Shown here: piece by piece, positions 16,018 through 50,344 of the stretch
Position numbering within the stretch: position 1 is the stretch's first letter
How the letters are laid out: each line of letters opens with the position of its first letter
DNA from: Calditrichota bacterium
GTDB lineage: Bacteria; Electryoneota; RPQS01
Direction of reading: 5' to 3'
NCBI GenBank assembly: GCA_020637395.1
Contig: JACJWA010000001.1
Coordinates: 1,110,078 to 1,174,077, forward strand
DNA length: 64,000 nucleotides
The notes under the pieces: model-generated
What the model was told of the DNA's origin: nothing
What the model saw: the letters and a program-made list of their open reading frames with translations, nothing else
Database searches by the model: none
Translations under genes and position numbers: made by a program

Positions 16018-17183
16018 GAAGCTTTGGTGACCGTATTCAAGTTTCTCGCTGATTCGAACTGCCTTCCGCGCCAAATGTAGCGCCCACGGAATACATGCGC
16101 AAACACACGCCAGACGAGCCAAATCGGGAGGAATAAGGATCCTGCAAGTACTCCTGGCGGAGTGATGTCGAGTTTCATTCGACGGGAGAACCATACTCCC
16201 GCAGCAGTGTCCAGCGCAACCTTGACTATTGTCGCAGCAGCGAGAATCGAGCAGCTCGGAAAAATCAAGGGCGACAAAAGCAGGGGATAGCTCAGCACTC
16301 CGACGAGCGAAGTCCAGGCGAACAGCAGCCGCCAGCGGATGGGATAGAATCGAGTTACGCTCTGATGCCGCGCCGCTTGAGACAACCTTGAACCGCGTGC
16401 GCCGTGATCCGTGACAACGCTTTCCGGAGAGTCGCAGAACACGACTCTCCAGCCCGTGCGTGCAATGGCCTGCACCGTCAAATCGTCATCGCCTGACGGT
16501 AGGTCCCGCCGAACAGGCGCTCCGACGTCTTCAATCGCTTGTCGCCGATAGAGTATGCTGTGTCCGCATGCCGAAGCTGGAAATCCCCACCCACAGGCCG
16601 AGGCCATCGAGATGTTGGCGATCAGTCGCTCCCATCGGTAGGTTTCCGGAACTCCGGTAGGAGGCCAAGAGGCACCGAGAACTGCTCCACAAGAATCGTC
16701 AGAATTTGCGATCAAGGATGACAGCCAGTCTGCAGGAACAGCGCAGTCTGCATCCGTTACTGCTATCCATTGTGTGTCAATCCGCGAAAATGCGAATGCC
16801 AAAGCCTCTTTTTTCGGACTGTGGCACAGGCCGCGGTCCACAGGGTTCGCGCTTACTTCGAGACATTGATTAGCCACTGCAAGCTGCTCGGCTATCTCCT
16901 TGGTTCGGTCGCTCGAGTCGTCATCTATGAACCGCACGACCTTCGGAAACAGGTGAGTCTGCGCCAGCACTGACTCAAGGCATAGACCCACGGTTTGCTG
17001 TTCATTTCTGCCCACAACTGCAATCCCGATCGAACTACCATCCGTTGCGACTTGAGCCACCCAACGCCCGGATTTCGCCCGCCACAGCAGTAGCCCTGTA
17101 ACCAAGAGTACGGAAGGCAGTACAACAAACAGCACTCCGAATGCAAGAAGCCAATCAGGTGGATGGTTCCAAGTCAGCATCAT
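16014..17183 (-). CDS. Family 2 glycosyltransferase
   Basis: N-terminal TM helix. IAVVGRNE...IDDDSSDRT and TDADC motifs. Confidence 0.7.
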   Translation of the reverse strand: MMLTWNHPPDWLLAFGVLFVVLPSVLLVTGLLLWRAKSGRWVAQVATDGSSIGIAVVGRNEQQTVGLCLESVLAQTHLFPKVVRFIDDDSSDRTKEIAEQLAVANQCLEVSANPVDRGLCHSPKKEALAFAFSRIDTQWIAVTDADCAVPADWLSSLIANSDDSCGAVLGASWPPTGVPETYRWERLIANISMASACGWGFPASACGHSILYRRQAIEDVGAPVRRDLPSGDDDLTVQAIARTGWRVVFCDSPESVVTDHGARGSRLSQAARHQSVTRFYPIRWRLLFAWTSLVGVLSYPLLLSPLIFPSCSILAAATIVKVALDTAAGVWFSRRMKLDITPPGVLAGSLFLPIWLVWRVFAHVFRGRYIWRGRQFESARNLNTVTKAS

Positions 17184-25994: not shown

Positions 25995-28794
25995 GGGAAA
26001 AGGCGCGCCGCTGTGGCTTGATGGTCTGGGGCTCGGCAACTTTGTCGCCATTGATCTGGAAACCACGGGGTTGACACCCGGACCAAATGAAATCATTGAG
26101 ATTGGGGCGATTCGTTTTGTGGACGGACGACCAAGCGAGAGATTTGAGCGATTTGTCAATCCCGGGAAGTCGCTGCCATCGTTTATTGTTCAACTTACCG
26201 GAATCACGGATCACGACGTTGAGGATGCTCCGACATTTTCCGATCTCCATGACGAACTGCTCGCCTTCATTGGATCTGATCCGATTGTCGGACAGAGTAT
26301 CAACTTTGATTTGAGTTTCTTGTCCGCTGCGGGAGGGAACGAGTTCCGTTTTCCCGGCAGAGTGGTGCTGGATACCGGCGAGCTGGCACGCATTTTTTGG
26401 GCGGAGTTCCCGCGCTTCTCCTTGGGAAACCTGTGCCAGCGATTTGGCGTGGAGTTAGCCACGGCACATCGGGCCGGTGACGACGCTCAAGCGACGGGCG
26501 AGCTGCTGGTTGAAATGATCAGGAACCTGCCGGAGCGCGTGTGGGCAGACCTGACGTCGCAGATCGCCGCCTTGTGCGGCGCTGCTCACCATCGAGGTGA
26601 AGTGTTCTTTGAAAGACTTCGGTTGCTTGCCGCGGATATTCCTCTTCCGGACTTTGCGCCGGACGATGATGAGCGGGAGTTGCTTTCAGAGATCAAACTT
26701 GATTGTCTTGCCGAGGGTGGAGAATTCGAGGCGAGCGTCGAACAATTTTCGCCGCGCCGCCAGCAACTTGACATGGCCGAACTCACTCAGCAGGCATTTG
26801 ATGAAAACCGAGTTCTGTTGATTGAAGCGCCGACAGGCACCGGAAAGTCCCTGGGCTATCTCGTGCCTTCGCTTGAATGGGCTTTGCGAGAAGGCGAGGA
26901 TGACGAGCAGCGTCAAGTCGTGATTTCATCACACACCCGATCGCTTCAAGAGCAGTTGCTCAATCAGGAGATTGCTGCTATTGGAAACGCGCACTCTTCA
27001 CGTGTACCTGCAGCCGTGCTCAAAGGACGGGACAACTACCTCTGCAAACGACGCCTACGTTCCGCGCTCACGGACCTTGACGGAAGACTTTCGGACGGAG
27101 ATCGTATGCGTCTGCTGCCGCTGCTGCGGTGGTCTTATCAAACCAAGCGCGGCGACATCGGAGAGATTGGTGGTTTCCGAGCCGAAACTGAGCCTGTATT
27201 GTGGTCCATCGTGTGTTCGGATACGCTGGGATGTGCAGGCGCGCGTTGCGGTGCGCATCGCGGAGACTTCTATCGTCAAGCGCTGGATCAGGCGAAGTCC
27301 GCGCGTCTGCTATTGGTCAATCACGCCTTGCTGGCTACGGACTTTGGCCGATTTATTGGCGGATCAGCTGATACCAAAAGATTGGTCATTGATGAGGCCC
27401 ATCAGTTTGAACGTGCAGTTGTTTCCGCCTATACCGCCGTGTTTAGCGCGCGGGCTATTCGGAACGTAGTTTCACTACTGACCGACGAACGCGCACCGCG
27501 CGGACTGCTTATGAAACTTGCTCGCGAGGTTGGTGACGACGACTACTCTGCCGAGTTGGCCCTATTGGACACAGCCGGCAAAACCACCATTCAGCGTGCA
27601 AGGCTAGCCTTTCAAGAAGCCGCTGCGGAAGTAGGCGGACTTGCCGGCGAGGAGTCCAAGCTCAGACTTAGACCCAATTCCTCATTGCATCGGCTGCTTG
27701 AGACAGCTTTGGTTCCTGTCGTGGAAGAGCTTGACGACTATGCAATCCGCTTGGACAAGTTGTCGCAGTTGCTCGCCAAGGAAGACGGACTGCAGAAAGA
27801 TACGAAGGATCGAATCGCCGAGTTGCGATCCGCAGTGCTCAACTTGTCTGAACTAGTAGAGACCGGGAAACGTGTTGTAAGTGCGGACGACTCAGGACAT
27901 GTCTATTGGTTGGAGGTGAATCAAGCGAGACAGGCCGCAACTGCCTCACTCTTCGCAGCGCCAATCTCCATCGCAGAGACTCTGCGGCACGATCTGTGGG
28001 AGAGGGTGGAGGGTGCAGTCATGACGTCGGCGACTCTCGCGCACGAGGGAGCATTCGAAGTCACGCAAAGTGCGCTCGGGTTGGAGTCACATGGGTCTGA
28101 CCGTGTTCAATCAAAGATCCTCGATTCCCCTTTCGACCTCGAAACACAGATGCGCTGCTATTGTCCGACCTACTTGCCACCGCCCCGCGAGTCCGATGCG
28201 CACCTGACTCAAGTCTCGGGTTTGCTGACTTTCCTGCTGACAGAAGTGCAGCGTTCTTGCCTGGTCTTGTGCACGTCGCACGCTTCTTCCGAAGCGCTCT
28301 ATCGCAGACTTCAGCCGGTTGCACGGCGCGCGAAACGCCCGCTCTTTCAGCAAACCGGCGGACGTGACACGCATGAGATTGTGCGGGCCTTCCGGGAGTC
28401 CGGCAACGGCATGCTGATCGGTTCTTCAGCACTGTGGGAGGGCATAGACTTGGTCGGCGATGCACTGGAAGTCCTCATGGTCGTGAAGCTACCCTTTGAC
28501 GTACCCACTGATCCGTGGGTGGAAGCTCGGGGTGAAATGCTGCAACTGCAAAAGCAGGATCCGTTTAGCACCTTCAGTGTTCCAAGCTGTGTGATCAGAC
28601 TTCGCCAGGGATTGGGCCGCTTGATTCGCCACACAGGTGATCGGGGCGTCGCGATCATTGCCGACAGCAGACTTACGAACACCCGCTACGGAAGAAACAT
28701 GCAAGCGGCGCTTCCGGTTCGACTCAGAAGTGTGAGCAGTCCGGATGACCTTCTAAATGACATTCACAGTTTCTTTGGAATACCTCATGTTTGA
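25939..28794 (+). CDS. dinG: DinG-family helicase fused to an N-terminal DnaQ-like 3'-5' exonuclease
   Basis: Exo I motif AIDLETTG and Exo III motif HRAGDDA. Walker A APTGTGKS and DEAH box (IDEAHQF). Four-Cys cluster C-x-C..C..C. The true start is uncertain; the track start overlaps gcvPB. Confidence 0.8.
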   Translation: MKPVPLEISISGSTTTSGKGKGAPLWLDGLGLGNFVAIDLETTGLTPGPNEIIEIGAIRFVDGRPSERFERFVNPGKSLPSFIVQLTGITDHDVEDAPTFSDLHDELLAFIGSDPIVGQSINFDLSFLSAAGGNEFRFPGRVVLDTGELARIFWAEFPRFSLGNLCQRFGVELATAHRAGDDAQATGELLVEMIRNLPERVWADLTSQIAALCGAAHHRGEVFFERLRLLAADIPLPDFAPDDDERELLSEIKLDCLAEGGEFEASVEQFSPRRQQLDMAELTQQAFDENRVLLIEAPTGTGKSLGYLVPSLEWALREGEDDEQRQVVISSHTRSLQEQLLNQEIAAIGNAHSSRVPAAVLKGRDNYLCKRRLRSALTDLDGRLSDGDRMRLLPLLRWSYQTKRGDIGEIGGFRAETEPVLWSIVCSDTLGCAGARCGAHRGDFYRQALDQAKSARLLLVNHALLATDFGRFIGGSADTKRLVIDEAHQFERAVVSAYTAVFSARAIRNVVSLLTDERAPRGLLMKLAREVGDDDYSAELALLDTAGKTTIQRARLAFQEAAAEVGGLAGEESKLRLRPNSSLHRLLETALVPVVEELDDYAIRLDKLSQLLAKEDGLQKDTKDRIAELRSAVLNLSELVETGKRVVSADDSGHVYWLEVNQARQAATASLFAAPISIAETLRHDLWERVEGAVMTSATLAHEGAFEVTQSALGLESHGSDRVQSKILDSPFDLETQMRCYCPTYLPPPRESDAHLTQVSGLLTFLLTEVQRSCLVLCTSHASSEALYRRLQPVARRAKRPLFQQTGGRDTHEIVRAFRESGNGMLIGSSALWEGIDLVGDALEVLMVVKLPFDVPTDPWVEARGEMLQLQKQDPFSTFSVPSCVIRLRQGLGRLIRHTGDRGVAIIADSRLTNTRYGRNMQAALPVRLRSVSSPDDLLNDIHSFFGIPHV

Positions 28795-29188
28795 GCAGCT
28801 CGATCATATCGCACTTGCCGTACCGGACCTGGACAAAGCTATTGACAATTGGAAAGAGCTGACCGGGGCGATGCTCAGTCACCGGGAGTTCGTGGAATCC
28901 CAAAACACACATGTTGCATTCCTCAGCCTTGCGGGATTTCGCATCGAGCTGATTGCACCCGGCGGCCCGGAGAGTACTGTGGCAAAGTATCTCGAAAAAA
29001 GAGGACCAGGTCTGCATCACATCGCGCTGAAGTGCGCGGACGGGCAATCGGCTTTGAATGAACTTGCCGAAAAAGGTGCTCGATTGATCAACGAGACGCT
29101 TCGCCCCGGTGCCGAGCAGACCATGGTCGGTTTCGTCCATCCCGCGAGCCTCGGAGGTGTATTGGTCGAAATCGTCGAGCATCCCTGA
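28787..29188 (+). CDS. VOC-family methylmalonyl-CoA epimerase/glyoxalase
   Basis: LDHIALAVPDLDKA...HHIAL VOC motifs. ATG start in an 8-nt overlap with the dinG stop. Confidence 0.65.
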   Translation: MFEQLDHIALAVPDLDKAIDNWKELTGAMLSHREFVESQNTHVAFLSLAGFRIELIAPGGPESTVAKYLEKRGPGLHHIALKCADGQSALNELAEKGARLINETLRPGAEQTMVGFVHPASLGGVLVEIVEHP

Positions 29189-29199
29189 TCACACGAGAT

Positions 29200-31035
29200 T
29201 TGATCGTGTCTGAATCGCTCTCTGAAAAGCTCGAGAATCTTCCTAAAGACCCCGGTGTCTATTTGTTCCGCGACGCGCGGGCAAAGGTCATCTACGTCGG
29301 CAAGGCGAAGGTGCTTCGCAATCGAGTCAGGCAGTACTTTCAGAAGTCTTCAGACGGCCGTGCGCAGTTTGAAATCCTGGTTTCCAAGATTGCAGACCTT
29401 GAAGTCATCACGACGAAGACGGAGTACGAAGCGATCATTCTTGAAGGCAACCTGATCCGCAAATTCAAGCCGCGCTACAATGTTGCCCTCAAAGATGACA
29501 AGTCACAGCCGTATCTCAAGATCGCAAACGAACCGTTTCCTCGAATCTTCCTGACGCGCAATCCCCAGCAGGATGGTTCAAAACTGTACGGACCGTACGG
29601 AGATCTGCGCTATTTGAAGGGACTGCTTCACGTCCTGCGCGGCATGTTGAAAATCAGAACATGCAATCTGCCGCTTGGTGAAGAGTCCATTGCGAATGGA
29701 AAGTTCAAGTCCTGTCTTGAGTTTCATCTTGGACGCTGCAATGCGCCCTGCGTCGGCCATGAAACGCTGCAAGAGTACGATCAGCGAGTTCGAGATTTCG
29801 TTCTGGTGCTGAAGGGCAGAGGGGCAGAGATTATTGCGCAGCTTCGCACCGAGATGGAGCAGGCGTCGGAGGAGTTGCGTTTTGAGCGTGCCGCTCAGCT
29901 TCGTGACTGGCTCTCCGCCATGGACAGCCTGACCCGCAGACAGACGATCATCTCGCCAGAGCCTGTGGACAGAGATATTGTCGGACTTGGAGTACAGGAT
30001 GAGGACGGTTGCCTGGTCGTCATGCAGGTTCGTGATGGCAGACTGCTCGGGCGAGTACAGTACCCGCTCCGCATTCCGAAAGACACTCCGCTCGCCGAGA
30101 TTCTGATGCATGCTTTGCAGCACTATTATTCTCAGGCCGTAGTGCCGTCAGAGCTTGTGCTTCCGTATGAACCAGAGTCGCTTGAGCTCTTAAGCGAATG
30201 GTTGCGGCAGCAAGCGGACTCAAAAGTGGTCGTCAGAGTTCCCGAGCGCGGAGAGAAGGTTAGAATGGTGGACCTCGCGCAGAGAAACGCCGACCTTCAG
30301 CTTCAAGAGATTCTGCGCGCCGCGGCCAAACGCGAGCGTATTCCCGCCAGTTTGACTGAGCTGCAGACCAGACTCGGTCTCCCCGGAATCCCGCGCGAGA
30401 TCGCCGCATTTGACAATTCCACGCTGATGGGTGAACATCAAGTCGCTGGAATGGTCGTTTATCGCATGGGGAAGCCCGCGAGATCAGAGTACCGTCGCTT
30501 CAAGATCAAGACCGTGACAGGTCAGGATGACTTTGCCTCAATGAAAGAGGTTGTCACGCGCCGCTTTTCACGCTTGCAGCGCGAAGGGCAGCCAATGCCG
30601 GATCTGATTCTGATTGATGGAGGCAAAGGCCAGCTTTCCGCAGCGGTGGAAGCCCTTGCTGACTTGGGACTTGAATCACTTCCCATCATCGGATTGGCCA
30701 AGAAGCTTGAAGAGATCTATCGGCCGGGTGAATTGGAGCCCCATAATCTCCCAAAGACATCATCCGCATTGCGGCTTCTTCAACAGGTTCGTGATGAAGT
30801 GCATCGTTACGCGATCACTTATCATCGTCAGGTGCGACAGAAGGAAGCCATGTCCTCGGAGTTGCAGGATATTCCCGGCATCGGTCCTGCGCGCCGCAAG
30901 TTGCTTTTGACTCATTTTCGTAGCGTGCAGCGCCTGTCCCTGGCCACTCGAGACGAGCTGTTAGAAATCCAAGGTATCAGTCCGGCACTGGCGGACAAGG
31001 TTCTATCCTTCTTCCAGGCCAAGAAAGCTCAATAA
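29200..31035 (+). CDS. uvrC: Excinuclease ABC subunit C
   Basis: GIY-YIG domain (GVYLF..YVGKA), UVR domain and C-terminal HhH. Confidence 0.9.
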
Positions 31036-31040
31036 CTAAA

Positions 31041-33263
31041 ATGTCTTCCGTCTATTCGCCCGTTTCTTTGGACACAGCCTTGTCACATGGTTTGACTCCC
31101 CAGGAGTATGAGCAAATCCTGGAAATCCTCGGGCGAACGCCGACGTTTGTTGAACTCGGAATCTTTTCCGCCATGTGGTCGGAGCATTGTTCATACAAGA
31201 ACTCCATTCTCGAGCTGAAACGCTTTCCCAAGAGCGGGAAACGCGTGCTGGTCGAAGCGGGTGAGGAAAACGCGGGTCTGATTGACATCGGCGACGGACT
31301 GGCGGTCTGCTTTAAGATTGAAAGCCACAACCATCCATCTGCCATCGAACCTTTTCAGGGCGCGGCAACGGGTGTCGGAGGAATTCTTCGAGACATCTTC
31401 TCCATGGGCGCGCGCCCCATCGCGTGTTTGAACTCGTTGCGATTTGGAGATCTGTCTCATCCGCGAACCGCTCAACTCCTGGACGGTGTCGTGCGTGGAA
31501 TCAGCCATTATGGCAATTGCTTCGGCGTGCCGACGGTCGGCGGTGAGATATACTTTGATCCTTCGTACAACGAGAATCCTCTCGTCAACGCCATGGCAGT
31601 CGGCGTGGTCGAAGTGGACAAGATTATCAAGGGTGCGGCTACCGGCGCTGGCAATCCGGTGTTCGTCGTTGGTTCTTCGACTGGACGCGATGGAATTCAC
31701 GGCGCGTCGTTCGCGTCAGAGGATTTGTCGGAGGCCTCCAAGGAGAAGCGCCCCTCAGTTCAAATCGGCGACCCCTTCAAAGAGAAACTTCTGCTTGAAG
31801 CCTCGCTTGAGCTCGCGCGTACTGACGCACTGGTCGGCATGCAAGATATGGGTGCTGCGGGAATCTGCTGTTCATGCAGCGAAACCCCTGCTCGAGGCGG
31901 CACGGGCCTCAAGCTGGATGTGGACAAGGTCTCGCGCCGCGAAAGTTCCATGAATGCCTACGAGATCTGTCTCTCCGAATCTCAAGAGCGTATGCTGGTT
32001 ATCTTGAAAAAAGGCAAAGAGCACCTTGCCAAAGATATTTTCAGCAAATGGGACTTACACGCGGATGAAGTCGGAGTGGTGACGGACGACAAGTTGTTCA
32101 CCATTCTTGAAAATGGCAATGTTGTGGGACAGATTCCTGCAGATTCGCTTGTGCTGGGAGGCGGCGCGCCGCAGAATCGAAGAGAACACGCGCGCCCTGC
32201 GCATCTCGACGCTCTTCTGAGTTTTGATCCCACGCATCTTCCCGACCCCGATGATTGGAACGAAGCACTCCTCGCTCTGTTAAAATCACCGAACATTGCT
32301 TCGCGCAGGTTTGTGTTTGAGCAGTATGATCACACCATCGGCGCGGCAACGGCACAAGGCGGCGGTGCTTCCGATGCGGGCGTCGTGCGCATTCCCGGCA
32401 CTCAGAAGGGACTTGCCATGTCCGTGGATTGCAACTCACGCTATGTGTCCGTAGATCCCAGGCGCGGAGCCGCGCTGGCCGTGCTCGAAGGTGCGCGAAA
32501 TGTGGCCTGCGCGGGTGCGATTCCCGTGGGCATCACAAACTGTCTGAATTTCGCTAACCCGATGAAACCGGAGAACTACTACTTCTTCCACGAATCTGTA
32601 ACCGGAATTTCAGATGCTTGCGTCGCGCTCGATATTCCAGTCACCGGTGGAAATGTCTCGTTCTACAACGAGTCTGCGAGCGGTCCGGTTAGGCCGACTC
32701 CTGTGATCGGCATGGTCGGTGTTTTGGAAGATGTTTCTCATCATGTCGGGATAGGATTCAAAGAAGAAGGTGATTTCATCGCCCTGCTGGGGAGCATCGG
32801 TCCTGATCTGGGATGCAGTGAGTATCTTGCCGTCTATCACAATGTTGTCGCGGGTGCCCCGCCCAAGCTTGATCTGGAAGCAAACCTGCGACTGATCCGG
32901 CTTTTGCCTGAACTCGCCAAGCAAGGCATTGTCCGCTCCGCGCACGACCTCTCCGAAGGCGGTTTAGCTGTGGCAGTCTCTGAGTGCAGTTTGGCCGGGA
33001 ACATTGGATGCTTACTGACGTTTCCGTGGAAGGAGCAGGTCGTAAATACGCTTTTTGCAGAGTCCCAGGCGTGCGCCCTGGTCACTGTCTCGCACGAACA
33101 ATGGCCCGCACTCAAGCGCGCGGCGGAGGAGCACGTCGTGCCCCTGCAAATGCTCGGCAGGGTGGGGGGCGAGCTGATTGCCATAAATGACTGGATCACG
33201 CTGCCGCTTGAATTGGCCCGCGACCTGTACGACAATTCGCTTGCTGATTCCCTGGGATTGTGA
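31041..33263 (+). CDS. purL: Phosphoribosylformylglycinamidine synthase II
   Basis: 740-aa PurM-like duplicated domains. [16 protein letters not shown]. Confidence 0.9.
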
Positions 33264-33316
33264 GAAAACCTTCGCAAGTTAATATATTTGTTAACTATAG
33301 CTTAGAAGTGTACGTA

Positions 33317-33345
33317 TTGCGTTTGCAATGTAATTGTAGTATATT
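33317..33345 (+). promoter_or_regulatory. Sigma70-like promoter (TTGCGT-N17-TATATT) for tRNA-Arg
   Basis: Hexamers and 17-nt spacing read directly. Lies in an AT-rich island about 35 nt upstream of the tRNA 5' end. Confidence 0.4.
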
Positions 33346-33381
33346 AAGAGATTAGAGGTTCTCCTTCCGCTCGCAGAACCT

Positions 33382-33455
33382 GCCCCCGTAGCTCAGTGGA
33401 TAGAGCACCGGCCTCCGGAGCCGGGAGCATGGGTTCGAGTCCCGTCGGGGGCGCA
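33382..33455 (+). tRNA. tRNA-Arg (anticodon CCG)
   Basis: Cloverleaf folded by hand: acceptor GCCCCCG/CGGGGGC, D-arm GCTC/GAGC, anticodon stem CCGGC/GCCGG with loop CTCCGGA, T-arm ATGGG-TTCGAGT-CCCGT. Confidence 0.85.
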
Positions 33456-33464
33456 GGAAATACT

Positions 33465-33797
33465 ATGTCAACAGAAGAATCACCCAAAGCTTCCTACGAG
33501 TTGGATGAGTTGAGCGAGGACGAAAAACTCCTTGCCGTGCTCGCGTACATTCCTTTTGTCTGCTTTGTCCCCTTTTTCAAGCGTGGCGAATCCGCGTTTG
33601 TCCACGGACACGTTAGACTGGGCATGGCTCTATTCTTCATTGAGGTCCTTGCTCTGCTGCTGCGCTTTAGATTCATCTGGGACCTTGTCCTGTTTTGCTG
33701 TATCATCGTTGCCGGACTGGGAATCTACAATGTGTTCAAAGGACGTGGTTTCTTTGTTCCGTTTCTTTCCGACATGTTCACCCGAAAATTCGATTGA
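33465..33797 (+). CDS. Small membrane protein
   Basis: Start trimmed to the ATG just past the tRNA, because the ORF-track start overlaps the tRNA. Two or three TM helices. Confidence 0.45.
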   Translation: MSTEESPKASYELDELSEDEKLLAVLAYIPFVCFVPFFKRGESAFVHGHVRLGMALFFIEVLALLLRFRFIWDLVLFCCIIVAGLGIYNVFKGRGFFVPFLSDMFTRKFD

Positions 33798-33827
33798 TCT
33801 TCGATTCAATACCCGTGGAGCCCACGC

Positions 33828-35099
33828 TTGAGATTATCTGAGAAAGCGGCGCAGTTTCAGACTGCAAAGCAAGTCATGGCCCAAGGCATCTATCCCTATT
33901 TCCGTGCGATTGAGACGGATCAAGATGCTGTGGTCAAGATTGACGGCCGTGATATTCTCATGCTCGGTTCCAACAACTACCTTGGTCTGACTAATCATCC
34001 CAAGGTCAAAGAAGCTGCCATAGATGCTGTGCGCCGATTTGGTGCAGGCTGCGCAGGCTCGCGCTTCTTAAACGGTACGCTGAGTATTCACAAGGAATGC
34101 GAAGACAGACTGGCGGAGTTCCTGCACAAGGAGTCTGTGCTGCTGTTCACGACCGGGTATCAGGCCAACGTCGGGACCATCGCCACTCTGGTCGAACGGA
34201 ACACGTGGATCATCGCGGATGCGCTGTCGCATGCTTCAATCATTGACGCCGCACGGCTCTCCTTTGGCCGGGTCGCCAAGTTCAAACATAATGACTTGCA
34301 GGATCTGGAGCGGCTGCTTCAGGTTCATCAGGGTCGGGATGTAATGGTCGTCACGGAGGGCGTCTTTTCGATGGAGGGAGATACCGCCGACCTTCCTGAG
34401 ATCGTCAAGCTCTGTCAGAAGTACGATGTAGATCTCCTGCTTGACGATGCTCATGGCGTGGGAGTCTATGGTTCACATGGAGAAGGAACAGCAGGCCACT
34501 TCGGTCTCAATGACGAAACAGACATCATAGTTGGAACTTTTTCCAAGTCCCTGGCGGCAATCGGCGGATTTGTCGCCGCGTCGGAAGAGATCGTCCATTT
34601 CTTGAAACATCATGCGCGCGCGTTGATCTTCTCAGCAAGTCCGCCGCCCGCGACAGTCGGCGCAGTACTTGCCGCCCTTAAGATTATCGTCGAAGAACCT
34701 GAACGCCGCGAGCTTCTTTGGCGAAATGCCGAGTATCTGCGAGACGGCCTCAAATCTCTTGGTTTGGACACGGGACACAGCAATTCTCCGATTATTCCGG
34801 TCGTCGTAGGAGACGCGACCAGCGCATTTCAAGTGTGCAAGATGATGCAGGACGAAGGTGTCTTCATCAATCCGGTCATTCCGCCTGCTGTTCAACCCGG
34901 CCAGTCCCTGATCCGCTTTTCGGTGATGTCCACTCATACCACCGACCAGCTCGATTTCGCCTTGGACAAGATTGGAAAAATCTCAAAGCTCATCCCCTTT
35001 CGCGCAGAGGCAAGTCATCCGCATTCGAGTCCAAACGGTATCAGACCCGAAAGCTCTGAAGAAGTTCCTTCGCTTCCCCTGGAAAATCCAGGCCGCTGA
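33828..35099 (+). CDS. Alpha-oxoamine synthase (BioF/Kbl/serine palmitoyltransferase family) with C-terminal extension
   Basis: PLP-lysine motif GTFSKSLAAIGGF. Family-typical length plus a ~40-aa tail. Confidence 0.8.
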   Translation: MRLSEKAAQFQTAKQVMAQGIYPYFRAIETDQDAVVKIDGRDILMLGSNNYLGLTNHPKVKEAAIDAVRRFGAGCAGSRFLNGTLSIHKECEDRLAEFLHKESVLLFTTGYQANVGTIATLVERNTWIIADALSHASIIDAARLSFGRVAKFKHNDLQDLERLLQVHQGRDVMVVTEGVFSMEGDTADLPEIVKLCQKYDVDLLLDDAHGVGVYGSHGEGTAGHFGLNDETDIIVGTFSKSLAAIGGFVAASEEIVHFLKHHARALIFSASPPPATVGAVLAALKIIVEEPERRELLWRNAEYLRDGLKSLGLDTGHSNSPIIPVVVGDATSAFQVCKMMQDEGVFINPVIPPAVQPGQSLIRFSVMSTHTTDQLDFALDKIGKISKLIPFRAEASHPHSSPNGIRPESSEEVPSLPLENPGR

Positions 35100-36132
35100 T
35101 CCCGCATGGGTTCCGCCGCTGCTGTTTGATCAGCGGCAGCTCTTCTCGCCCAAGCATCCGTTTCATCAGCACGCCGAAGTCGAACATTTCCTTGCATTCG
35201 ATGAGCATGACGTTGTTCGTGGTAGAATCAGCGCCATCGTCAACCACGCGCACAATCGCTTCTGGAGCGATAAGGTTGGATTCTTCGGCTTCCTTGAATT
35301 GGAAGATGATCCGATTGTGGCAGAGGCGCTGCTTGGCGCTGCGCAGAACTTTCTTAAGAATCGGGGCCTCGAAGTGATGCGAGGCCCGATGAATTTCTCG
35401 ACCAACGAAGAGTGCGGTCTGCTGGTGGACGGGTTCGAGACTCCGCCCGCCGTTATGATGACGCACAACCCGCGTTACTACGCAAGACTTCTGGAATCGC
35501 AAGGACTCGTCAAGGCAAAAGACCTGCTTGCGTATCAAATGTTCGAGGGTGAGCTGACGGACCGTGTTCGAGAGTTCGGCAGGAAACTCGAGGATAAGCT
35601 CGATATTCGATTTCGAGAACTCAATCCCAAGGACTTCAAAGGCGAGATCGAACGCTTCAAGAAAGTGTACAATTCTGCGTGGGAAGAAAACTGGGGCTTC
35701 GTCCCCATGACCGACGCGGAGATTGACGTGATGGCCGCGAGCCTAAAGATGGTGCTGGACCCCCGGCTGATTCAGTTTGCAGAGACTCCCAACGGTGAAA
35801 CCGCGGGATTCATTCTCGGTCTGCCTGACCTGAATGTTATCCTAAGCAAACTGAACGGCAAGCTCTTTCCATTCGGAATATTCCGTTTACTGGCAGGGAA
35901 GCACAAAGTTGGAAGGGCGCGTGTACTGGCCATGGGAGTTCTGCCGGAGTATCGCAAGAAGGGCATTGATACGGTCTTGTATCTGCGGGCTTATGAAGCA
36001 GGGACGAAAGCAGGCTACAAGTGGGGAGAGTTCTCTTGGGTTCTTGCGGACAATCAACTAATGACCAAGGCCGCGGAATCCATGGGTTCAAAGGCGTACA
36101 AGACCTGGCGAATCTACGATAAGGCAATTTGA
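34972..36132 (+). CDS. GNAT-fold N-acyltransferase (386 aa)
   Basis: C-terminal GNAT motif A EYRKKGIDTVLY. The only ATG upstream of the conserved N-terminal region is at 34972, giving a 128-nt overlap with the upstream gene. Confidence 0.5.
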   Translation: MEKSQSSSPFAQRQVIRIRVQTVSDPKALKKFLRFPWKIQAADPAWVPPLLFDQRQLFSPKHPFHQHAEVEHFLAFDEHDVVRGRISAIVNHAHNRFWSDKVGFFGFLELEDDPIVAEALLGAAQNFLKNRGLEVMRGPMNFSTNEECGLLVDGFETPPAVMMTHNPRYYARLLESQGLVKAKDLLAYQMFEGELTDRVREFGRKLEDKLDIRFRELNPKDFKGEIERFKKVYNSAWEENWGFVPMTDAEIDVMAASLKMVLDPRLIQFAETPNGETAGFILGLPDLNVILSKLNGKLFPFGIFRLLAGKHKVGRARVLAMGVLPEYRKKGIDTVLYLRAYEAGTKAGYKWGEFSWVLADNQLMTKAAESMGSKAYKTWRIYDKAI

Positions 36133-36138
36133 AAAAGC

Positions 36139-37683
36139 ATGTTCTCCGATGTTACAACTGCTGCACTGTTGGGCGTGGATGCTTACCGCGTCCGCGCAGA
36201 GTGCCATCTGGAGAACACCAGCGCTGATTTTATTGTCGTCGGATTGCCGGACAATGCGGTGAAAGAAGCGCGCGAGCGTGTCGCCGCAGCTATCAAGAAT
36301 TCCGGCTATGCAATGCCGCAGCGCAAGATCACCATAAATCTTGCTCCAGCGAATATTCGCAAAGAAGGCAGCGGCTATGATTTGCCAATTGCATTTGGTA
36401 TCCTCGCCGCATCCGGTCAACTTGCTCCGGGCGCAACTGACGAGACCGCGTTAGCCGGTGAGCTTGCCTTGGACGGGCACGTTCGCCCCGTGCGCGGAAT
36501 GCTTCCGATTTCCAGCGCCTTGAAGCGCGAAGGATTCAAGCGGTTAATCGTTCCCGAAGCGAATGCCCAGGAAGCTGCGCTGATCCCCGGCATAGATGTT
36601 CATCCGGTTGCGTCGCTTCGCGACGCCGTGGATTTCGTCAACGGGCTTGTCCCCATTCCGCGCTTCACTGTGGATCATCAGAACCTGTTTGATTCCGCGC
36701 GAGAACCCGTGGGCGATTTCAGTGACGTCCGCGGTCAGAGTTCTGTCAAGCGCGCACTTGAAGTCGCCGCCGCAGGTGCGCACAATGTGCTAATGATTGG
36801 TCCACCGGGCTCGGGCAAGACGATGCTGGCCAAGAGGCTGCCAGGAATTCTTCCCGAGTTCAGTCTGGACGAGGCACTTGAGACTACGCGTGTTCATTCG
36901 GTTGCTGGTCTCTTGCGAAATGGTCAAGCAATCGTGGCCAATCGTCCATTCCGTTCTCCGCATCACACTGTTTCTGATGCAGGATTGATTGGCGGCGGCA
37001 TGATCCCTCGTCCGGGAGAGGTTTCACTTGCTCACAACGGCGTGCTGTTTCTTGACGAGCTGCCTGAGTTTCACAAGAACGTGCTGGAAGTCTTGCGTCA
37101 GCCGCTTGAAGACGGAATCGTCACTCTGTCTCGCGCTGCCGTGACCCTTTCTTATCCTGCGCAGTTCATGTTGATTGCCGCCATGAATCCGTGCCCCTGC
37201 GGCTTTGCCACGGACCCGGATCGCGAGTGCAAGTGCACTCCCGAGCAGGTTCGGCGTTATGTCGCAAAGATTTCCGGCCCGCTGCTGGACCGAATTGATC
37301 TGCATGTGGAGGTCCCGAGAGTTTCTTGGAATGATCTCTCTTCGTCCGCTGAGATAGATGAAACACACTTTGTGCGTGATCGCGTAGAACTGGCGCGCCG
37401 CAGACAGCGTGAACGATTCGAAAAACATCGGCCGGGTCTCTATTCAAATTCCCAAATGAGCAACAAGGATATCGAGCAGTTTGCGCCGATTGATGCGCAC
37501 AGCCTCGAGTTGCTGCGGCAGGTTGTTGAGACCATGGGACTTTCCGCTCGGGCCTATCATCGTATTCGCAAGGTCGCCCGCACGATTGCCGACATCGAGG
37601 GCTTTGACGAGATTCAACTCTCACATGTCACCGAAGCGGTACAATACCGATCTCTGGACAGGTTGGGAGAGTTTGTCGCGTGA
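36139..37683 (+). CDS. YifB/ComM Mg-chelatase-like AAA+ ATPase
   Basis: N-terminal Lon-protease-like domain, Walker A GPPGSGKT, MCM-like arginine finger region and C-terminal domain. Confidence 0.85.
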   Translation: MFSDVTTAALLGVDAYRVRAECHLENTSADFIVVGLPDNAVKEARERVAAAIKNSGYAMPQRKITINLAPANIRKEGSGYDLPIAFGILAASGQLAPGATDETALAGELALDGHVRPVRGMLPISSALKREGFKRLIVPEANAQEAALIPGIDVHPVASLRDAVDFVNGLVPIPRFTVDHQNLFDSAREPVGDFSDVRGQSSVKRALEVAAAGAHNVLMIGPPGSGKTMLAKRLPGILPEFSLDEALETTRVHSVAGLLRNGQAIVANRPFRSPHHTVSDAGLIGGGMIPRPGEVSLAHNGVLFLDELPEFHKNVLEVLRQPLEDGIVTLSRAAVTLSYPAQFMLIAAMNPCPCGFATDPDRECKCTPEQVRRYVAKISGPLLDRIDLHVEVPRVSWNDLSSSAEIDETHFVRDRVELARRRQRERFEKHRPGLYSNSQMSNKDIEQFAPIDAHSLELLRQVVETMGLSARAYHRIRKVARTIADIEGFDEIQLSHVTEAVQYRSLDRLGEFVA

Positions 37684-39281
37684 GCACTAGTCTCGGGTTT
37701 GAGTCGTTTGATGCGTCGAAGTGGGCAGCCGACCAGATCGCTTCAGTCCGCAATCGCACCGTGCTTGTTGCCGATGGTCGTGAGATTTCCGGCGATGAAT
37801 TGGCAAAGAGTTGTGAGGTGTGGAGAAGCAGTCTGCTCGCCGCGCGGATCGAACCCGGAGCGGTAGTTGCGATTGCCGCTGAACGTTCGCCCGATGCCGT
37901 TGCTCTTTTTCTGTCTTGCTTGCAGTGCGGCGCATTGCCGTTCTTTGTGGATCCGCGTCAAGACCAGAATGACTTGTACAAGCTCCTGGATGCAGTGAGA
38001 ATTCAAGGAATCTGGTGCGGTACGACATTGGATAGGGAGGGCATTGCCGCACGATTGCCCTACCTTCGCTGGAAAGGCGAGTGTGAAGGGCAGGGAGGAA
38101 CACTTGACAGCACGACGCCGTCCGTCGAACAGGCCTCAGCATTTGTGCTGCATTCCGCTGGCACTTGTTCATTGCCGCGCGCTCTGTTTCATTCTGGTGC
38201 CGCAATTGCATGGCAGGCGAAAGCCCTGATTTCCCAGTTGCGTTTGCGTGCGAGTCTTGAAGTTTGGTTCACGGGAACTCTCGCTTCTCCTGCTGTTCTG
38301 TCCCTTGGGGTGTTCACCGTTCTTAGCTGCGGTGGGACACTGGTTCTTGATGAACCTGACTCGCATCTTGCCTCTGCAAGTACGTCGCCGGGCCAACGCA
38401 TCCTGATACTTGCCGAAGCAAAAGATGAGCAGTCGTGGAATGCCGAGAATCTTCTGAAAATCAAAGGGCGGGTGAATGCTGTCCTACACACCGACGCGCG
38501 ACTAAGCGAGGAGTTTCATGAACGACTCTCGCGTGCGACGGATGCAAGTGTTTGGACAGGGTCCTATGCTGCTGAAACCGCAGGATTCTATGCGCTGAAC
38601 ACGCTCCCCGGTGTCTGGCCATTTGAGTCAGCGGGCAGACCAATTGGAGGAGCGAGCTTCAGGATCTTTGGAACTGATGGCAGACCAGTATTGTGCAATG
38701 AAATAGGACGACTGGCTGTTTCAGGCACGCCTCAACCGCAGAAGACTGTCTCTCTTTCATTCAAGTCTACTGTGGCGAAAAGTGCGGAAGACAGCTGGTG
38801 GTGGGTGGGAGACTGGGCAAGAATGGATGCTCATGATTTCTTACACCTCGAAGGATGCGAAGGTGCCGTCTTTGAAAAGGGCGGATTCACTGTAGTCTCA
38901 AGCGAGATCGAGGACGCTCTTATTCGGATCGAAGGCATTGCGGACGCAGTTGCATTTGCACAACCCGACGAGGACCTTGATTGCGAGGTGTCCGCATGCA
39001 TAGTTCCTTCTGACGGGATGATAGATGCTCAGCAAATTCCTTTGAAACTGCTTGGTGCTTTGGTTCGTTTTAAGATTCCGCGTACGCTCTCCATTGAGCC
39101 GAACGGGCTCCTACGTACTCCTTCGGGCAAGCTGGTACGGCATGGCTCTAACCTTGCCGCGAATCAGGTTTCGCAACTCAAGCCCTTACCTGAAGTTAAG
39201 ACTCCGGTGAGCGGCCCGAAAGTTGCCTCAAAGTCCGAAGCGGACTCGGTGGACGAGTCTCTGCCCGCAGAAGACCTCTGA
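37680..39281 (+). CDS. Divergent AMP-binding (acyl-CoA/acyl-ACP synthetase-like) enzyme
   Basis: GTGA overlap with the upstream gene. Degenerate motif I (HSAGTCSLPRA). GDWARMD...G...EIE motif. C-terminal PSGKLVR. Confidence 0.5.
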   Translation: MSTSLGFESFDASKWAADQIASVRNRTVLVADGREISGDELAKSCEVWRSSLLAARIEPGAVVAIAAERSPDAVALFLSCLQCGALPFFVDPRQDQNDLYKLLDAVRIQGIWCGTTLDREGIAARLPYLRWKGECEGQGGTLDSTTPSVEQASAFVLHSAGTCSLPRALFHSGAAIAWQAKALISQLRLRASLEVWFTGTLASPAVLSLGVFTVLSCGGTLVLDEPDSHLASASTSPGQRILILAEAKDEQSWNAENLLKIKGRVNAVLHTDARLSEEFHERLSRATDASVWTGSYAAETAGFYALNTLPGVWPFESAGRPIGGASFRIFGTDGRPVLCNEIGRLAVSGTPQPQKTVSLSFKSTVAKSAEDSWWWVGDWARMDAHDFLHLEGCEGAVFEKGGFTVVSSEIEDALIRIEGIADAVAFAQPDEDLDCEVSACIVPSDGMIDAQQIPLKLLGALVRFKIPRTLSIEPNGLLRTPSGKLVRHGSNLAANQVSQLKPLPEVKTPVSGPKVASKSEADSVDESLPAEDL

Positions 39282-39300
39282 TCTATTTCTTGGAGTTGTC

Positions 39301-39882
39301 ATGATAAGCGTTGAAGTAATCGGAATCTCGGTTTGCCCCCCGTACCAGGGATACGTTGTTATCCTGAAGGAGAAAGAGGGTGAACGATGGCTCCCTATCT
39401 TCATTGGCGCTGCAGAGGCGCAAAGTATTTCGCTCTTGCTGCAAGGTCTGGAGTATGCCCGCCCAATGACCTATGATCTGTTTGCCGCAATCCTGGAAGA
39501 AGGTGGTGTATCTGTGAATTCCACCACTATTTGCGACTTGAAAGACAACACCTTCTACGCCGAAGTTGAGCTCCAGATTACAGGTGATGAGATCCGGAGA
39601 ATTGATGCCCGTCCTTCTGACGCCATCGCGCTTGCTTTGAAAAGCAAAGCGCCAATCCAAGTGGCCAATAAAGTCATGGATAGTGCGGCGGTCAGCAACG
39701 AGCCTGTGAATCGCTCAATCGTCGAACAAATCGCCTACTTGCACCAGAAACTCAAGGAATATGTCGAGGTGGAGGCCTATGAGGAGGCCGCCAAAATCAG
39801 AGATCACATTCGCTCTCTGGAAACCCGGCTGTCCGAGCATGAACCCCAAGGATCGGACGGTCCTACGGAAGGCAAGGCATAG
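39301..39882 (+). CDS. Bifunctional-nuclease (DUF151) domain protein with C-terminal UVR motif
   Basis: VIGISVC...VVILKE...WLPIFIG core. EAAKIRDHIRSLE UvrB/C-like helix. Start trimmed to an ATG with a GGAG Shine-Dalgarno. Confidence 0.6.
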   Translation: MISVEVIGISVCPPYQGYVVILKEKEGERWLPIFIGAAEAQSISLLLQGLEYARPMTYDLFAAILEEGGVSVNSTTICDLKDNTFYAEVELQITGDEIRRIDARPSDAIALALKSKAPIQVANKVMDSAAVSNEPVNRSIVEQIAYLHQKLKEYVEVEAYEEAAKIRDHIRSLETRLSEHEPQGSDGPTEGKA

Positions 39883-39965
39883 CCGATTCGCTCGTTTTCT
39901 TCTTTCTCCTGTTTATTAACGACTTAAACATTTTTTGCCCTTTCTTTGAGCGCCTTCGCTCTGGC

Positions 39966-39994
39966 TTGATATATTAGCAAAGTCTTGTTATCTT
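39966..39994 (+). promoter_or_regulatory. Sigma70-like promoter (TTGATA-N17-TATCTT) for the yceD-rpmF-plsX-fab operon
   Basis: Read directly from the 134-nt AT-rich intergenic region upstream of yceD. Confidence 0.35.
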
Positions 39995-40015
39995 TACGAC
40001 TTCAGGAATCCTGAC

Positions 40016-40474
40016 GTGAAAATCCACCTACCCACCTACGGGCAAGGCGTCCACGAAATCAATCAGGATTTGGAGGCCGCTGAGCTTGAGCTCGATCCGG
40101 CGATCTTTGAGCAGGCCGTGCATGCCGCTCTGAGACTGGACCGGCATGATCCTTACTTTGAGTTCCGAATTCATCTGACTGCAATTGCTCATGCAGAATG
40201 TGATCGTTGTCTCGAGGGCTTTCAGTTGCCGTTGGAAGTTCGCGCGCCCTTGCTGTTCGTCGCGGGCCATCCCCCAAAGGGCGATGACGTGGACGACACG
40301 GATATTGTCTATTTCAAGGCAGGCACAACGGAACTCGATTTGAGTCACGATTTCCGTGACCTTTTGATTCTCGCATATTCCGGAAAGCATCTCTGCGACG
40401 AGAACTGCAAGGGGCTCTGCCCCAACTGCGGCGCAAATCTCAATGAGCATTTCTGCGAGTGTGCGCCTAACTGA
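40016..40474 (+). CDS. yceD: YceD/DUF177 ribosomal-protein-L32-associated protein
   Basis: C-x2-C...C-x2-C pattern. Position upstream of rpmF-plsX. Confidence 0.7.
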   Translation: MKIHLPTYGQGVHEINQDLEAAELELDPAIFEQAVHAALRLDRHDPYFEFRIHLTAIAHAECDRCLEGFQLPLEVRAPLLFVAGHPPKGDDVDDTDIVYFKAGTTELDLSHDFRDLLILAYSGKHLCDENCKGLCPNCGANLNEHFCECAPN

Positions 40475-40502
40475 TTCCTATTCACAACCAACATAACACA
40501 TC

Positions 40503-40685
40503 ATGCCAGTACCCAAAAGACGAACCGGCAAGTCGCGACGCGACCGTCGCCGGGCTAACTACAACTTGAACGGACCGGCCCTTGCCACCTGTCCTAACTG
40601 CAAAGCGACCATCGCGCCGCACCGTGTTTGCGGTTCGTGCGGATACTACAACGGCCGCTTTGTCATTCAAGTTAAGGCAAGGTAG
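40503..40685 (+). CDS. rpmF: 50S ribosomal protein L32
   Basis: MPVPKRRTGKSRRDRRR, zinc-ribbon form with four Cys. Confidence 0.9.
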   Translation: MPVPKRRTGKSRRDRRRANYNLNGPALATCPNCKATIAPHRVCGSCGYYNGRFVIQVKAR

Positions 40686-40705
40686 AGTCAAATATCGTCT
40701 CGTCC

Positions 40706-41773
40706 ATGGTCATAGCCCTGGATGCAATGGGAGGCGATCACTTCCCTCATGTACCCGTTGAGGCGGCCTGTCAGGCACTCCGTGAATGGAATGACCTGCA
40801 TGTTGCCCTCTTTGGACCAGAGGAAAGCCTGCGATCTGAGTTGAAACGCTTGGATGCGAGCGACATCATGGATCGCATTCTGATCGAGCACAGCGCGGAA
40901 GTCATCGAGATGACTGATTCGCCGGGTAAGGTCGTGAGGTCGAAACCGGATGCGTCTCTCTTGCGCGCGATTGACATGCATCAATCAGGTGCAGCGCAAG
41001 CCGTTGTCTCGGCTGGCCACACCGGCGTGCAGATGGCCGCAAGCTACATGAAACTCGGTCTGATCAAGGGAGTGCGACGCCCCACGATTGGCGGACTTTT
41101 CCCCAAGGGAGACGGCAAGTTCGCCATTCTTCTCGATGTCGGCGCGAACACGGACTGCAAGCCAATTAACCTCCTGCAATTTGCCGTCATGGGCTCTGTG
41201 TATATGGAGCTACTGACTGGCACCAAGAATCCCAGAATTGCTCTGATCTCAATCGGTGAAGAACGAACCAAGGGCAACGAACTCGTTCTCGCAACGCACT
41301 ATCTGCTCGAACAGAGCGGCCTGAACTTTGTCGGAAACGTGGAGGGCCGGGATCTCCTGTCTGATAAGGCCGATGTCATGGTCTGTGACGGTTTTGTCGG
41401 AAATGTCATTCTAAAACTCAGCGAATCGCTGTTTCATGCCTTCATGAGCAGAGTAGCCGTTTCCGATGGCAATGGCCCGACACCTGCGGTGCTTGGCAAG
41501 ATGGCCAAGGAGTTTGATTACTCTGAAATCGGCGGCGTGCCGCTGCTTGGAGTCAATGGAGTCTCCATCATCTGTCATGGAGGATCTCCCGCCAAGGCGA
41601 TCAAAAACGCGATCGGGGAGGCGCGCCGACTGGTTCAGAAAAACCTGCCGTCCGCCCTCAGTGAAGGTGTTGATCAATACGATGCCAGTATGCTGGCGCG
41701 CGGTATGGCCATGTACAAGGGCCGTAAGGAAAAGCGTGACGAGCTGGAGGTAGAGGAGACAGACGATGAGTAA
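40706..41773 (+). CDS. plsX: Phosphate acyltransferase
   Basis: IALDAMGGDH N-terminal signature. 355 aa. Confidence 0.9.
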   Translation: MVIALDAMGGDHFPHVPVEAACQALREWNDLHVALFGPEESLRSELKRLDASDIMDRILIEHSAEVIEMTDSPGKVVRSKPDASLLRAIDMHQSGAAQAVVSAGHTGVQMAASYMKLGLIKGVRRPTIGGLFPKGDGKFAILLDVGANTDCKPINLLQFAVMGSVYMELLTGTKNPRIALISIGEERTKGNELVLATHYLLEQSGLNFVGNVEGRDLLSDKADVMVCDGFVGNVILKLSESLFHAFMSRVAVSDGNGPTPAVLGKMAKEFDYSEIGGVPLLGVNGVSIICHGGSPAKAIKNAIGEARRLVQKNLPSALSEGVDQYDASMLARGMAMYKGRKEKRDELEVEETDDE

Positions 41774-44497: not shown

Positions 44498-44746
44498 ATG
44501 TCCGACATGGAAAACAAAGTCAAAAAGATCATCGCCGACCGCTTGCAGGTTGACCTCAGCAGCGTCACCGATGGCGCAGGTTTCGTCGAGGACCTCGGAG
44601 CGGATTCGCTTGATCTCGTCGAACTGGTCATGGCCTTCGAGGAAGAGTTCGGCCTGGAAATCCCGGATCAGGACGCCGAAACGATGAAGACCGTGGGAGA
44701 TGCCGTCAACTACTTGAAGAGCAAGAGCCCCGCGGAAAACGCCTAA
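44498..44746 (+). CDS. acpP: Acyl carrier protein
   Basis: DLGADSLD phosphopantetheine site. GGAGG Shine-Dalgarno upstream. Confidence 0.95.
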
Positions 44747-50342: not shown

Positions 50343-50344
50343 TC

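Follow-up and report, generated by a model that had tools for sequence, protein, structure and literature searches.

An overlapping spt-bcerS gene pair predicted to encode the first two steps of bacterial ceramide synthesis in a Calditrichota-labelled bacterium

We analyzed a 64-kb stretch of DNA (hereafter the window) from an uncultured bacterium labelled Calditrichota, in which all the open reading frames (ORFs) of Table 1 lie on the + strand. The ORFs that a sequence-only reading had proposed for the region 33828-39281 were confirmed in both position and strand, and are listed in Table 1 together with the overlap of the first two and with a small gene lying upstream of them. The neighbours of the spt/bcerS pair are PurL, a small predicted membrane protein and YifB, and the YifB/ComM gene, which has no relation to lipid synthesis, stands between bcerS and the gene for an AMP-binding enzyme. 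Two related genomes (L001 and L086) share the gene order of the region, and in the window and its close relatives spt and bcerS are the only members of the ceramide cluster present. The small membrane protein has no Pfam or NCBIfam match; tblastn found it in L086 (81% identity), L001 (77%) and a third locus, L003 (34%, E 7e-19), each time upstream of an alpha-oxoamine synthase (AOS) gene, and its position upstream of spt is thus kept in the window's lineage and at one further locus. A promoter and terminator scan of 28700-41000 gave nothing above the shuffled background.

Table 1. Features of the spt-bcerS region, in coordinates of the window
Feature	Position	Strand	Length or basis
Small predicted membrane protein, immediately 5' of spt	33396..33797	+	tblastn conservation
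spt: PLP-dependent AOS, predicted serine palmitoyltransferase (SPT) type	33828..35099	+	423 aa
Out-of-frame overlap of spt 3' end and bcerS 5' end, 128 nt	34972..35099	+	sequence and codon inspection
bcerS: YghO-family tandem-GNAT N-acyltransferase, bacterial ceramide synthase homolog	34972..36132	+	386 aa
YifB/ComM Mg-chelatase-like AAA ATPase	36139..37683	+	TIGR00368, 600 bits, above cutoff
Divergent adenylate-forming (AMP-binding) enzyme with altered P-loop	37680..39281	+	Pfam AMP-binding, only 72 bits

The AOS matches Pfam Aminotran_1_2 with 214 bits, and its best NCBIfam model is NF047600 (serine palmitoyltransferase, CFB type) with 563 bits, a score under the equivalog cutoff of 640; the bioF and Kbl models give 400 and 386 bits, which are below their own cutoffs (426 and 460) and well under the score of the SPT model. 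When PDB sequences were searched with phmmer, the SPT of Sphingobacterium multivorum (3A2B) scored 444 bits, followed by a Thermus BioF/Kbl enzyme (312), Kbl (253-265), cysteate-C-fatty-acyltransferase (CFAT, 28eh; 261), SulA (7u7h; 237), BioF (220), ALAS (203) and CqsA (140). Identity with the S. multivorum SPT (3A2B, 8GUH) is 50% over 387 columns and the full length, as compared with 36% for E. coli Kbl and 34% for E. coli BioF. The PLP-lysine motif GTFSKS (aa 236-241), HASIID (aa 135-140) and DDAHG (aa 206-210) align to the same blocks of 3A2B, and all the blocks inspected are conserved; unlike that enzyme, the window protein carries an extra, non-conserved C-terminal tail of about 35 aa. 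The placement of the AOS relative to BioF and Kbl, which the sequence-only reading had left to phylogeny, was examined with a neighbour-joining (NJ) tree, in which the window sequence shares a clade with the S. multivorum SPT and 60 bCerS-linked AOS in 80 of 100 bootstraps (CFAT sequences were outside this tree), and all Spt sequences stand apart from Kbl and BioF in 91 of 100 replicates. No bio or tdh genes were found near the AOS gene. From these sequence comparisons we assign the AOS to the Spt type, as a protein closer to characterized SPT than to BioF, Kbl, ALAS, CqsA or CFAT.

The 386-aa protein has a single Pfam hit at E<0.01, a weak Acetyltransf_1 match at residues 267-367. Its residues 15-386 align with residues 5-380 of E. 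coli BL21 YghO at 36% identity (E 1e-74), and hhalign gives a probability of 100. Homology to Caulobacter CC_1154 was established via this YghO, its listed ortholog; YghO and CC_1154, together with the Swit_3908 group, are listed as ceramide N-acyltransferase (PMC9386255), and CC_1154/CCNA_01212 is the cerS/bCerS gene (PMC11324152, PMC10865984). The family motifs FLRFPW (aa 32-37), NWGFVPMT (aa 240-247) and SWVLADN (aa 355-361) are present, and the C-terminal domain has the acyl-CoA motif YRKKGID (aa 327-333), which resembles Q/RxxGxG/A. The AF2 model (pLDDT 92.8) predicts a tandem-GNAT fold. In Foldseek comparisons this model resembles MAB_4324, the glucosamine N-acetyltransferase of C. acetobutylicum, MshD and FemX, which likewise have two GNAT domains per chain (E 1e-13 to 1e-8, TM 0.5-0.6), although their identity with bCerS is only 9-14% and they use other substrates. 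When the PDB was searched with a profile of the GNAT family, only generic matches to the C-terminal GNAT domain came up, and no solved structure could be assigned by sequence to the YghO/bCerS family. An N-acyl amino acid synthase of the OlsB/FeeM type, which is a single-domain protein of Acetyltransf_5, was considered and rejected, because Pfam gives Acetyltransf_1 only and the model is that of a 386-aa tandem GNAT. Of the two families against which the sequence-only reading had wished to compare this protein, bacterial CerS and FeeM, it is thus the former that fits, and we identify the protein as a full-length YghO/CC_1154 homolog and a predicted bacterial ceramide synthase.

The two ORFs are read in different frames where they overlap. 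TTG at 34972 is the sole canonical start codon upstream of the conserved N-terminal strand of bCerS, at which the homology to YghO sets in (nt 35014). The non-conserved tail of Spt is encoded within the overlap; in the related genome L001, where the overlap reaches up to 155 nt, residues of the GNAT frame are conserved and those of the Spt tail are not.

We also examined 80 loci that carry a bCerS homolog, collected from many phyla, 74 of which have enough upstream DNA to be informative. A Spt-type AOS gene lies directly upstream of the bCerS homolog in 55 of these 74, which is in keeping with the proposal that the GNAT acyltransferase is the partner of the Spt-like enzyme. A CerR-type reductase, homologous to the CerR-like epimerase of E. 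coli BL21 (E down to 1e-36), is adjacent in 52 of the 80 loci, and 21 of them have a PAP2_3 protein, whose Pfam family is of the IPC/sphingomyelin-synthase type. This linkage pattern is that of the published Spt-bCerS-CerR ceramide cluster, for which Caulobacter CCNA_01220/01212/01222, E. coli BL21 spt/yghO/epimerase and B. fragilis BF9343_4218/4240 serve as references.

Both the 64-kb window and the 21-kb locus of the relative L001 lack a CerR homolog and a PAP2 gene. An RmlD-like SDR at 2851-3756 was examined as a CerR candidate and rejected, its similarity being only at the Rossmann level (E 0.001). When a CerR of Calditrichia was used as a search seed, the large contigs of this lineage were unrepresented among the best 120 matches. 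The pathway encoded in the window would therefore end at keto-ceramide unless a reductase is encoded elsewhere.

Taking these results together, we think it likely that Spt and bCerS, the products of the overlapping pair, catalyse steps one and two of bacterial ceramide synthesis; we base this on homology, fold and conserved gene linkage, and infer from these the substrates, the order of the reactions and the lipid product. Spt, a soluble PLP enzyme with its predicted catalytic lysine in GTFSKS, would condense L-serine with a long-chain acyl thioester to give 3-ketodihydrosphingosine. By analogy with Bacteroidota-type SPTs the acyl donor would most likely be acyl-CoA; the S. multivorum SPT is placed in the subgroup of bacterial SPTs that use acyl-CoA and do not depend on ACP (PMC9386255). 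bCerS, whose C-terminal GNAT domain would bind the acyl-CoA donor, would then N-acylate the amine of 3-ketodihydrosphingosine, yielding 3-keto-dihydroceramide, and a CerR-type reductase, for which the window has no gene, would reduce this to dihydroceramide. The likeness to the Spt-bCerS-CerR system thus lies in the homologous Spt and bCerS, in the homologous CerR at related loci and in the inferred chemistry, and the difference in the 128-nt overlap of the two genes, with bcerS immediately following spt, and in that the window has neither AcpR/AasR partners nor, within 64 kb, CerR. On this reading the locus would be an ordinary new example of a pathway already known, with its first two enzymes represented. 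Of the amino-lipid module that the sequence-only reading had outlined, the sphingolipid form accordingly survives, with a Spt-like enzyme coupled to a CerS-like GNAT protein; its sulfonolipid form and the inclusion of the AMP-binding enzyme do not.

That enzyme had been suggested to activate the acyl donor. Such a three-component module, in which it would stand in for AasR as a non-orthologous analog and supply acyl-CoA or acyl-ACP to Spt and/or bCerS, finds some encouragement in the tight same-strand gene string (bcerS ending at 36132 and yifB beginning at 36139, with a 4-nt overlap of yifB and the AMP-binding gene), in the order kept in L001 and L086, and in the housekeeping acpP and fab genes 5 kb downstream. 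The degenerate motif I noticed in the sequence-only reading is real: it reads HSAGTCSLPRA (aa 158-168) as against the canonical (T/S)SG(T/S)TGxPKG, and the few homologs of the protein keep it as HSAGTCGLPRA; since its motifs are conserved within the clade, the enzyme is under selection. However, these homologs amount to only nine close ones among 5.8 billion proteins, all on contigs of the same lineage, and the gene occurs in none of the 80 loci with a spt/bcerS pair from other lineages. The protein shares the adenylate-forming superfamily with the AasR/AcpR system of rhodobacterial sphingolipid clusters, but its similarity to E. coli BL21 AasR is only at the superfamily level (BLASTP E 0.018), and it has an altered P-loop and lacks the FAAL-type insertions seen in the alignment of E. 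coli AasR. No homolog of AcpR, the dedicated ACP, was found in any locus, nor in the window besides the housekeeping acpP (44498-44746). Furthermore, the protein diverges much faster than its neighbours, with 43% identity between the window and L001 as against 73-86%. Its co-occurrence with the pair is due only to the synteny of a whole housekeeping region within one lineage; UvrC, PurL, YifB and a BFN nuclease are encoded in the same string, and co-linearity therefore carries little functional information. We regard the three-component module as unlikely, and treat the AMP-binding gene as an unrelated operon neighbour without a demonstrable link to the ceramide pathway.

The same two enzymes might instead use another amino acid, such as alanine or glycine, and produce 1-deoxy or other non-canonical N-acyl amino-ketone lipids, which, with no CerR, may be end products in place of ceramide. 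The lack of CerR in both the window and the relative locus would suit this possibility, as would the score of Spt below the NF047600 equivalog cutoff, and abundant 1-deoxysphingolipids have been reported by Ding et al. from bacteria with Spt-like genes (PMC11334938). Against it, the AOS is half identical to a characterized SPT that is specific for serine, with the inspected motif blocks conserved, and most of the homologous pairs in other phyla carry CerR; we hold the use of another amino acid to be quite unlikely. A scenario in which CerR was lost from the cluster in this lineage, the clade-specific adenylate-forming enzyme with its remodelled P-loop (HSAGTCGLPRA) was recruited into the operon as a non-orthologous fatty-acid activator for Spt/bCerS, and 3-keto-ceramides or another non-canonical sphingoid lipid are the end product, seems to us very unlikely.

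The sulfonolipid alternative would make the AOS a CFAT and have the GNAT protein N-acylate capnine. In its favour, the two enzyme types fall within shared superfamilies, and sulfonolipids occur in the FCB group, of which the source organism is a member. Nevertheless, the aforementioned scores of CFAT and SulA are no better than that of Kbl and fall well short of that of SPT, no cysteate synthase was present among the scanned ORFs of the window, and the conserved partners at other loci match those of ceramide clusters (CerR and PAP2_3), which makes a capnine-type module highly improbable. A BioF or Kbl housekeeping enzyme standing by chance beside an unrelated acetyltransferase, for which only the sizeable sub-threshold bioF and Kbl scores speak, deserves almost no credence in view of the stronger SPT match, the lack of bio or tdh genes nearby and the conservation of the pair across many phyla.

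The preferred reading, a Spt-bCerS pair, extends the predicted synthesis of ceramide-type lipids in bacteria to a Calditrichota-labelled lineage; our literature search found no paper linking Calditrichota to sphingolipid synthesis. Since the pathway and its wide spread over about 40 phyla have already been published, this gain is incremental. The identification should nevertheless be useful for annotation, because the YghO/bCerS family lacks an NCBIfam model and existing labels for the protein go no further than "N-acetyltransferase" or "RimI-like".

The arrangement of the pair also bears on what has been reported for Proteobacteria, in which, according to PMC11324152, spt and cerS are never part of one operon. 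Apparent fusions, with ORFs of 750-830 aa in three loci (L002, L020 and L061), proved to be artefacts of a long open reading of the GNAT frame upstream, and a check of frames and stops revealed no AOS-GNAT fusion among the 80 loci; natural fusions do occur among database proteins (P0292, 780 aa, and P0428). In contrast to the published statement, bcerS outside Proteobacteria is usually located directly 3' of spt, as it is in the window, and is sometimes fused to it.

The region of 25.9–46.8 kb on the plus strand is a single run of tightly spaced genes, in which we have found a gene pair that probably encodes a serine palmitoyltransferase (Spt) and a bacterial ceramide synthase (bCerS); this is an ordinary find, a fresh example of a known pathway. 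The gene order of this run is repeated in two related genomes (loci L001 and L086). By exact sequence match, the window falls in MAGs that carry the NCBI label Calditrichaeota/Calditrichota bacterium. The sequence-only reading had the coordinates right, as well as the 128-nt overlap between the genes for the alpha-oxoamine synthase (AOS) and the GNAT protein, for which TTG 34972 is the sole canonical start that precedes its conserved N-terminal strand. So long an spt/bcerS overlap is unusual (it reaches up to 155 nt in L001); the spacing in most other loci ranges from a few-base overlap to a gap of a few tens of bases; within it, the GNAT-frame residues are conserved between the window and L001 but the Spt tail is not. 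The small predicted membrane protein directly upstream of spt has no family match and is kept at the same position in L086 (81%), L001 (77%) and the more distant L003 (34%). From MCB9357221 (PurL) to MCB9357224 (YifB), window 31041–37683, NCBI has two accessions for three intervening ORFs, one of which may be unannotated, or annotated from another start, in the NCBI entry; only Logan assemblies yielded the 423-aa AOS as an exact match and the GNAT protein in a 271-aa version.

Features of the window with their positions
Feature	Position	Strand	Remark
RmlD-like reductase	2851-3756	+	
UbiA-family prenyltransferase	4799-5623	+	
Five-gene glycosyltransferase cluster	12010-17183	-	
DinG-like helicase-exonuclease, UvrC, PurL	5' part of run	+	
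Small membrane protein	33396-33797	+	
Alpha-oxoamine synthase	33828-35099	+	
GNAT protein	34972-36132	+	386-aa ORF, weak GNAT match
YifB/ComM	36139-37683	+	
AMP-binding protein	37680-39281	+	
BFN-domain nuclease, YceD	after AMP-binding gene	+	
PlsX, FabH, FabD, FabG, ACP, FabF, RNase III	3' part of run	+	
SelA	50270-51739	+	
SelB	56269-58155	+	

The AOS is, judging from its sequence, a serine-palmitoyltransferase-type enzyme. Its top NCBIfam model is NF047600, CFB-type serine palmitoyltransferase, with 563 bits, under the cutoff of 640, but the bioF (400), Kbl (386) and ALAS (265) models all score well below these 563 bits. Among all PDB sequences, the top match is Sphingobacterium multivorum SPT (SmSPT; 3A2B/8GUH, 444 bits), with 50% identity over 387 aligned columns that include the HASIID, DDAHG and GTFSKS (PLP-lysine) blocks, followed by a Thermus BioF/Kbl enzyme (312), Kbl (253–265), cysteate-C-fatty-acyltransferase (CFAT; 261), SulA (237) and BioF (220). 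In a neighbor-joining tree of SPT-type, Kbl and BioF sequences, SmSPT groups with the window AOS and 60 AOS of related loci in 80 of 100 bootstraps, and E. coli BL21 Spt falls in with this group, apart from Kbl and BioF, in 91 of 100.

The GNAT protein can be assigned as a bacterial ceramide synthase homolog. It aligns end to end with E. coli BL21 YghO at 36% identity (E 1e-74), and a profile of its family hits YghO at a probability of 100. We attribute the putative ceramide-synthase function to it because E. coli BL21 yghO (ECD_02850), CC_1154, Swit_3908 and others are listed as encoding the acyl-CoA N-acyltransferase that acts in dihydroceramide synthesis (Padilla-Gomez et al., PMC9386255), and CC_1154/CCNA_01212 is cerS/bCerS (PMC11324152, PMC10865984). 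The E. coli BL21 cluster contains yghO, a fatty acyl-AMP ligase, an epimerase, an ACP and spt. The family comprises at least 7,961 homologs in a word-indexed search and 3,263 clusters at 50% identity (E <= 1e-30) in an exhaustive search; it has no NCBIfam model, and in Pfam the protein gives only a weak Acetyltransf_1 match in its C-terminal third. A confident AlphaFold model from 78 sequences (pLDDT 92.8) shows a tandem-GNAT fold; the solved structures closest to it, at 9–14% identity, are MAB_4324, a clostridial glucosamine N-acetyltransferase, MshD and FemX.

From a family-alignment scan we kept 80 loci, one genome per species, spanning Gemmatimonadota, Zixibacteria, Ignavibacteria, Calditrichia, Eisenbacteria, Planctomycetota, Binatia, Acidobacteria, Bacteroidota and others. 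Among the 74 with sufficient upstream DNA, an Spt-type AOS lies directly upstream of the GNAT gene on the same strand in 55, within 1–4.5 kb in five and downstream in one; 13 have none. A NAD-dependent epimerase/dehydratase-family reductase, homologous to the CerR-like epimerase of E. coli BL21 (E down to 1e-36), lies directly 3' of the GNAT gene or directly 5' of the AOS gene in 52 of the 80. A PAP2_3 membrane protein is also present in 21 of the 80, chiefly Gemmatimonadota, Acidobacteria and Eisenbacteria; this protein (PAP2_3 with PAP2_C) comes after the CerR-type reductase (e.g., L058 12084–12962 and L047 7196–8041). The PAP2_3 family takes in IPC- and sphingomyelin-synthase-type enzymes, and the protein is a candidate head-group transferase for phosphosphingolipids. 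The AOS-GNAT-reductase loci are the Spt-bCerS-CerR ceramide cluster, whose genes are "often found clustered" and whose pathway has been inferred in about 40 phyla (PMC11334938). No AcpR or AasR homolog was found in any of the 80 loci, which fits the published split of SPTs into an ACP-dependent rhodobacterial and a Bacteroidota/delta-proteobacterial subgroup (PMC9386255). Two database proteins, P0292 (780 aa) and P0428 (648 aa), join an AOS at the N terminus to a YghO/bCerS domain at the C terminus in one polypeptide, and P0287 (784 aa) seems to hold the bCerS unit twice in tandem; assembly artefacts are possible in all three.

The sequence-only reading had proposed an amino-lipid module, of sphingolipid or sulfonolipid type, with the AMP-binding enzyme activating the acyl donor; the sphingolipid part is supported, and the other two parts are not. 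The altered motif I noted in this enzyme is real: HSAGTC(G/S)LPRA is conserved in homologs, together with ETAGF and GDWxxxD motifs and the TPSGK lysine, and therefore the gene is not decaying. The protein has GC in place of the usual GR of motif A8. With nine close homologs (41–54% identity) in 5.8 billion proteins and all else at <= 26%, it belongs to a very small, fast-evolving, clade-specific family. A part in acyl activation, an add-on compatible with the other readings, is doubtful: proximity is the sole point in its favour, yifB stands between bcerS and this gene in a run that includes DNA-repair and purine genes as well, and the enzyme lacks specific similarity to AasR and occurs in none of the other 80 loci. 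At least four of the nine homologs share contigs with the closest bCerS homologs, because the whole region is syntenic (L001, L086).

Homologies, fold and conserved linkage are established directly here; on family knowledge, Spt would convert serine and acyl-CoA to 3-ketodihydrosphingosine, bCerS would N-acylate this in the cytoplasm, and a reductase encoded elsewhere, if any, would finish dihydroceramide. In bacteria acylation precedes reduction (PMC11087976). A non-serine substrate or a keto end product is unlikely. No CerR or PAP2 homolog was found in the 64-kb window or in L001. The sole other extended SDR in the window, the RmlD-like protein (148 bits against the rmlD equivalog cutoff of 224), is not a CerR ortholog. 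Sulfonolipid synthesis is very improbable: the AOS scores far higher against SmSPT than against CFAT or SulA. A BioF/Kbl identity is the least likely of all.

Elsewhere in the window, a minus-strand cluster holds three GT2 glycosyltransferases with weak HpnB/HpnI/Glyco_transf_21-like matches, a NodB-type polysaccharide deacetylase and a membrane protein resembling LPG_synthase_TM/flippase proteins. The cluster has the look of a system for lipid-linked or exopolysaccharide glycosylation, and that it glycosylates ceramide is pure speculation. The UbiA-family prenyltransferase has a faint match (26.6 bits) to archaeal-type geranylgeranylglycerol-phosphate geranylgeranyltransferase. SelA (L-seryl-tRNA selenium transferase) and SelB (selenocysteine-specific elongation factor) are both encoded, and therefore the organism uses selenocysteine.
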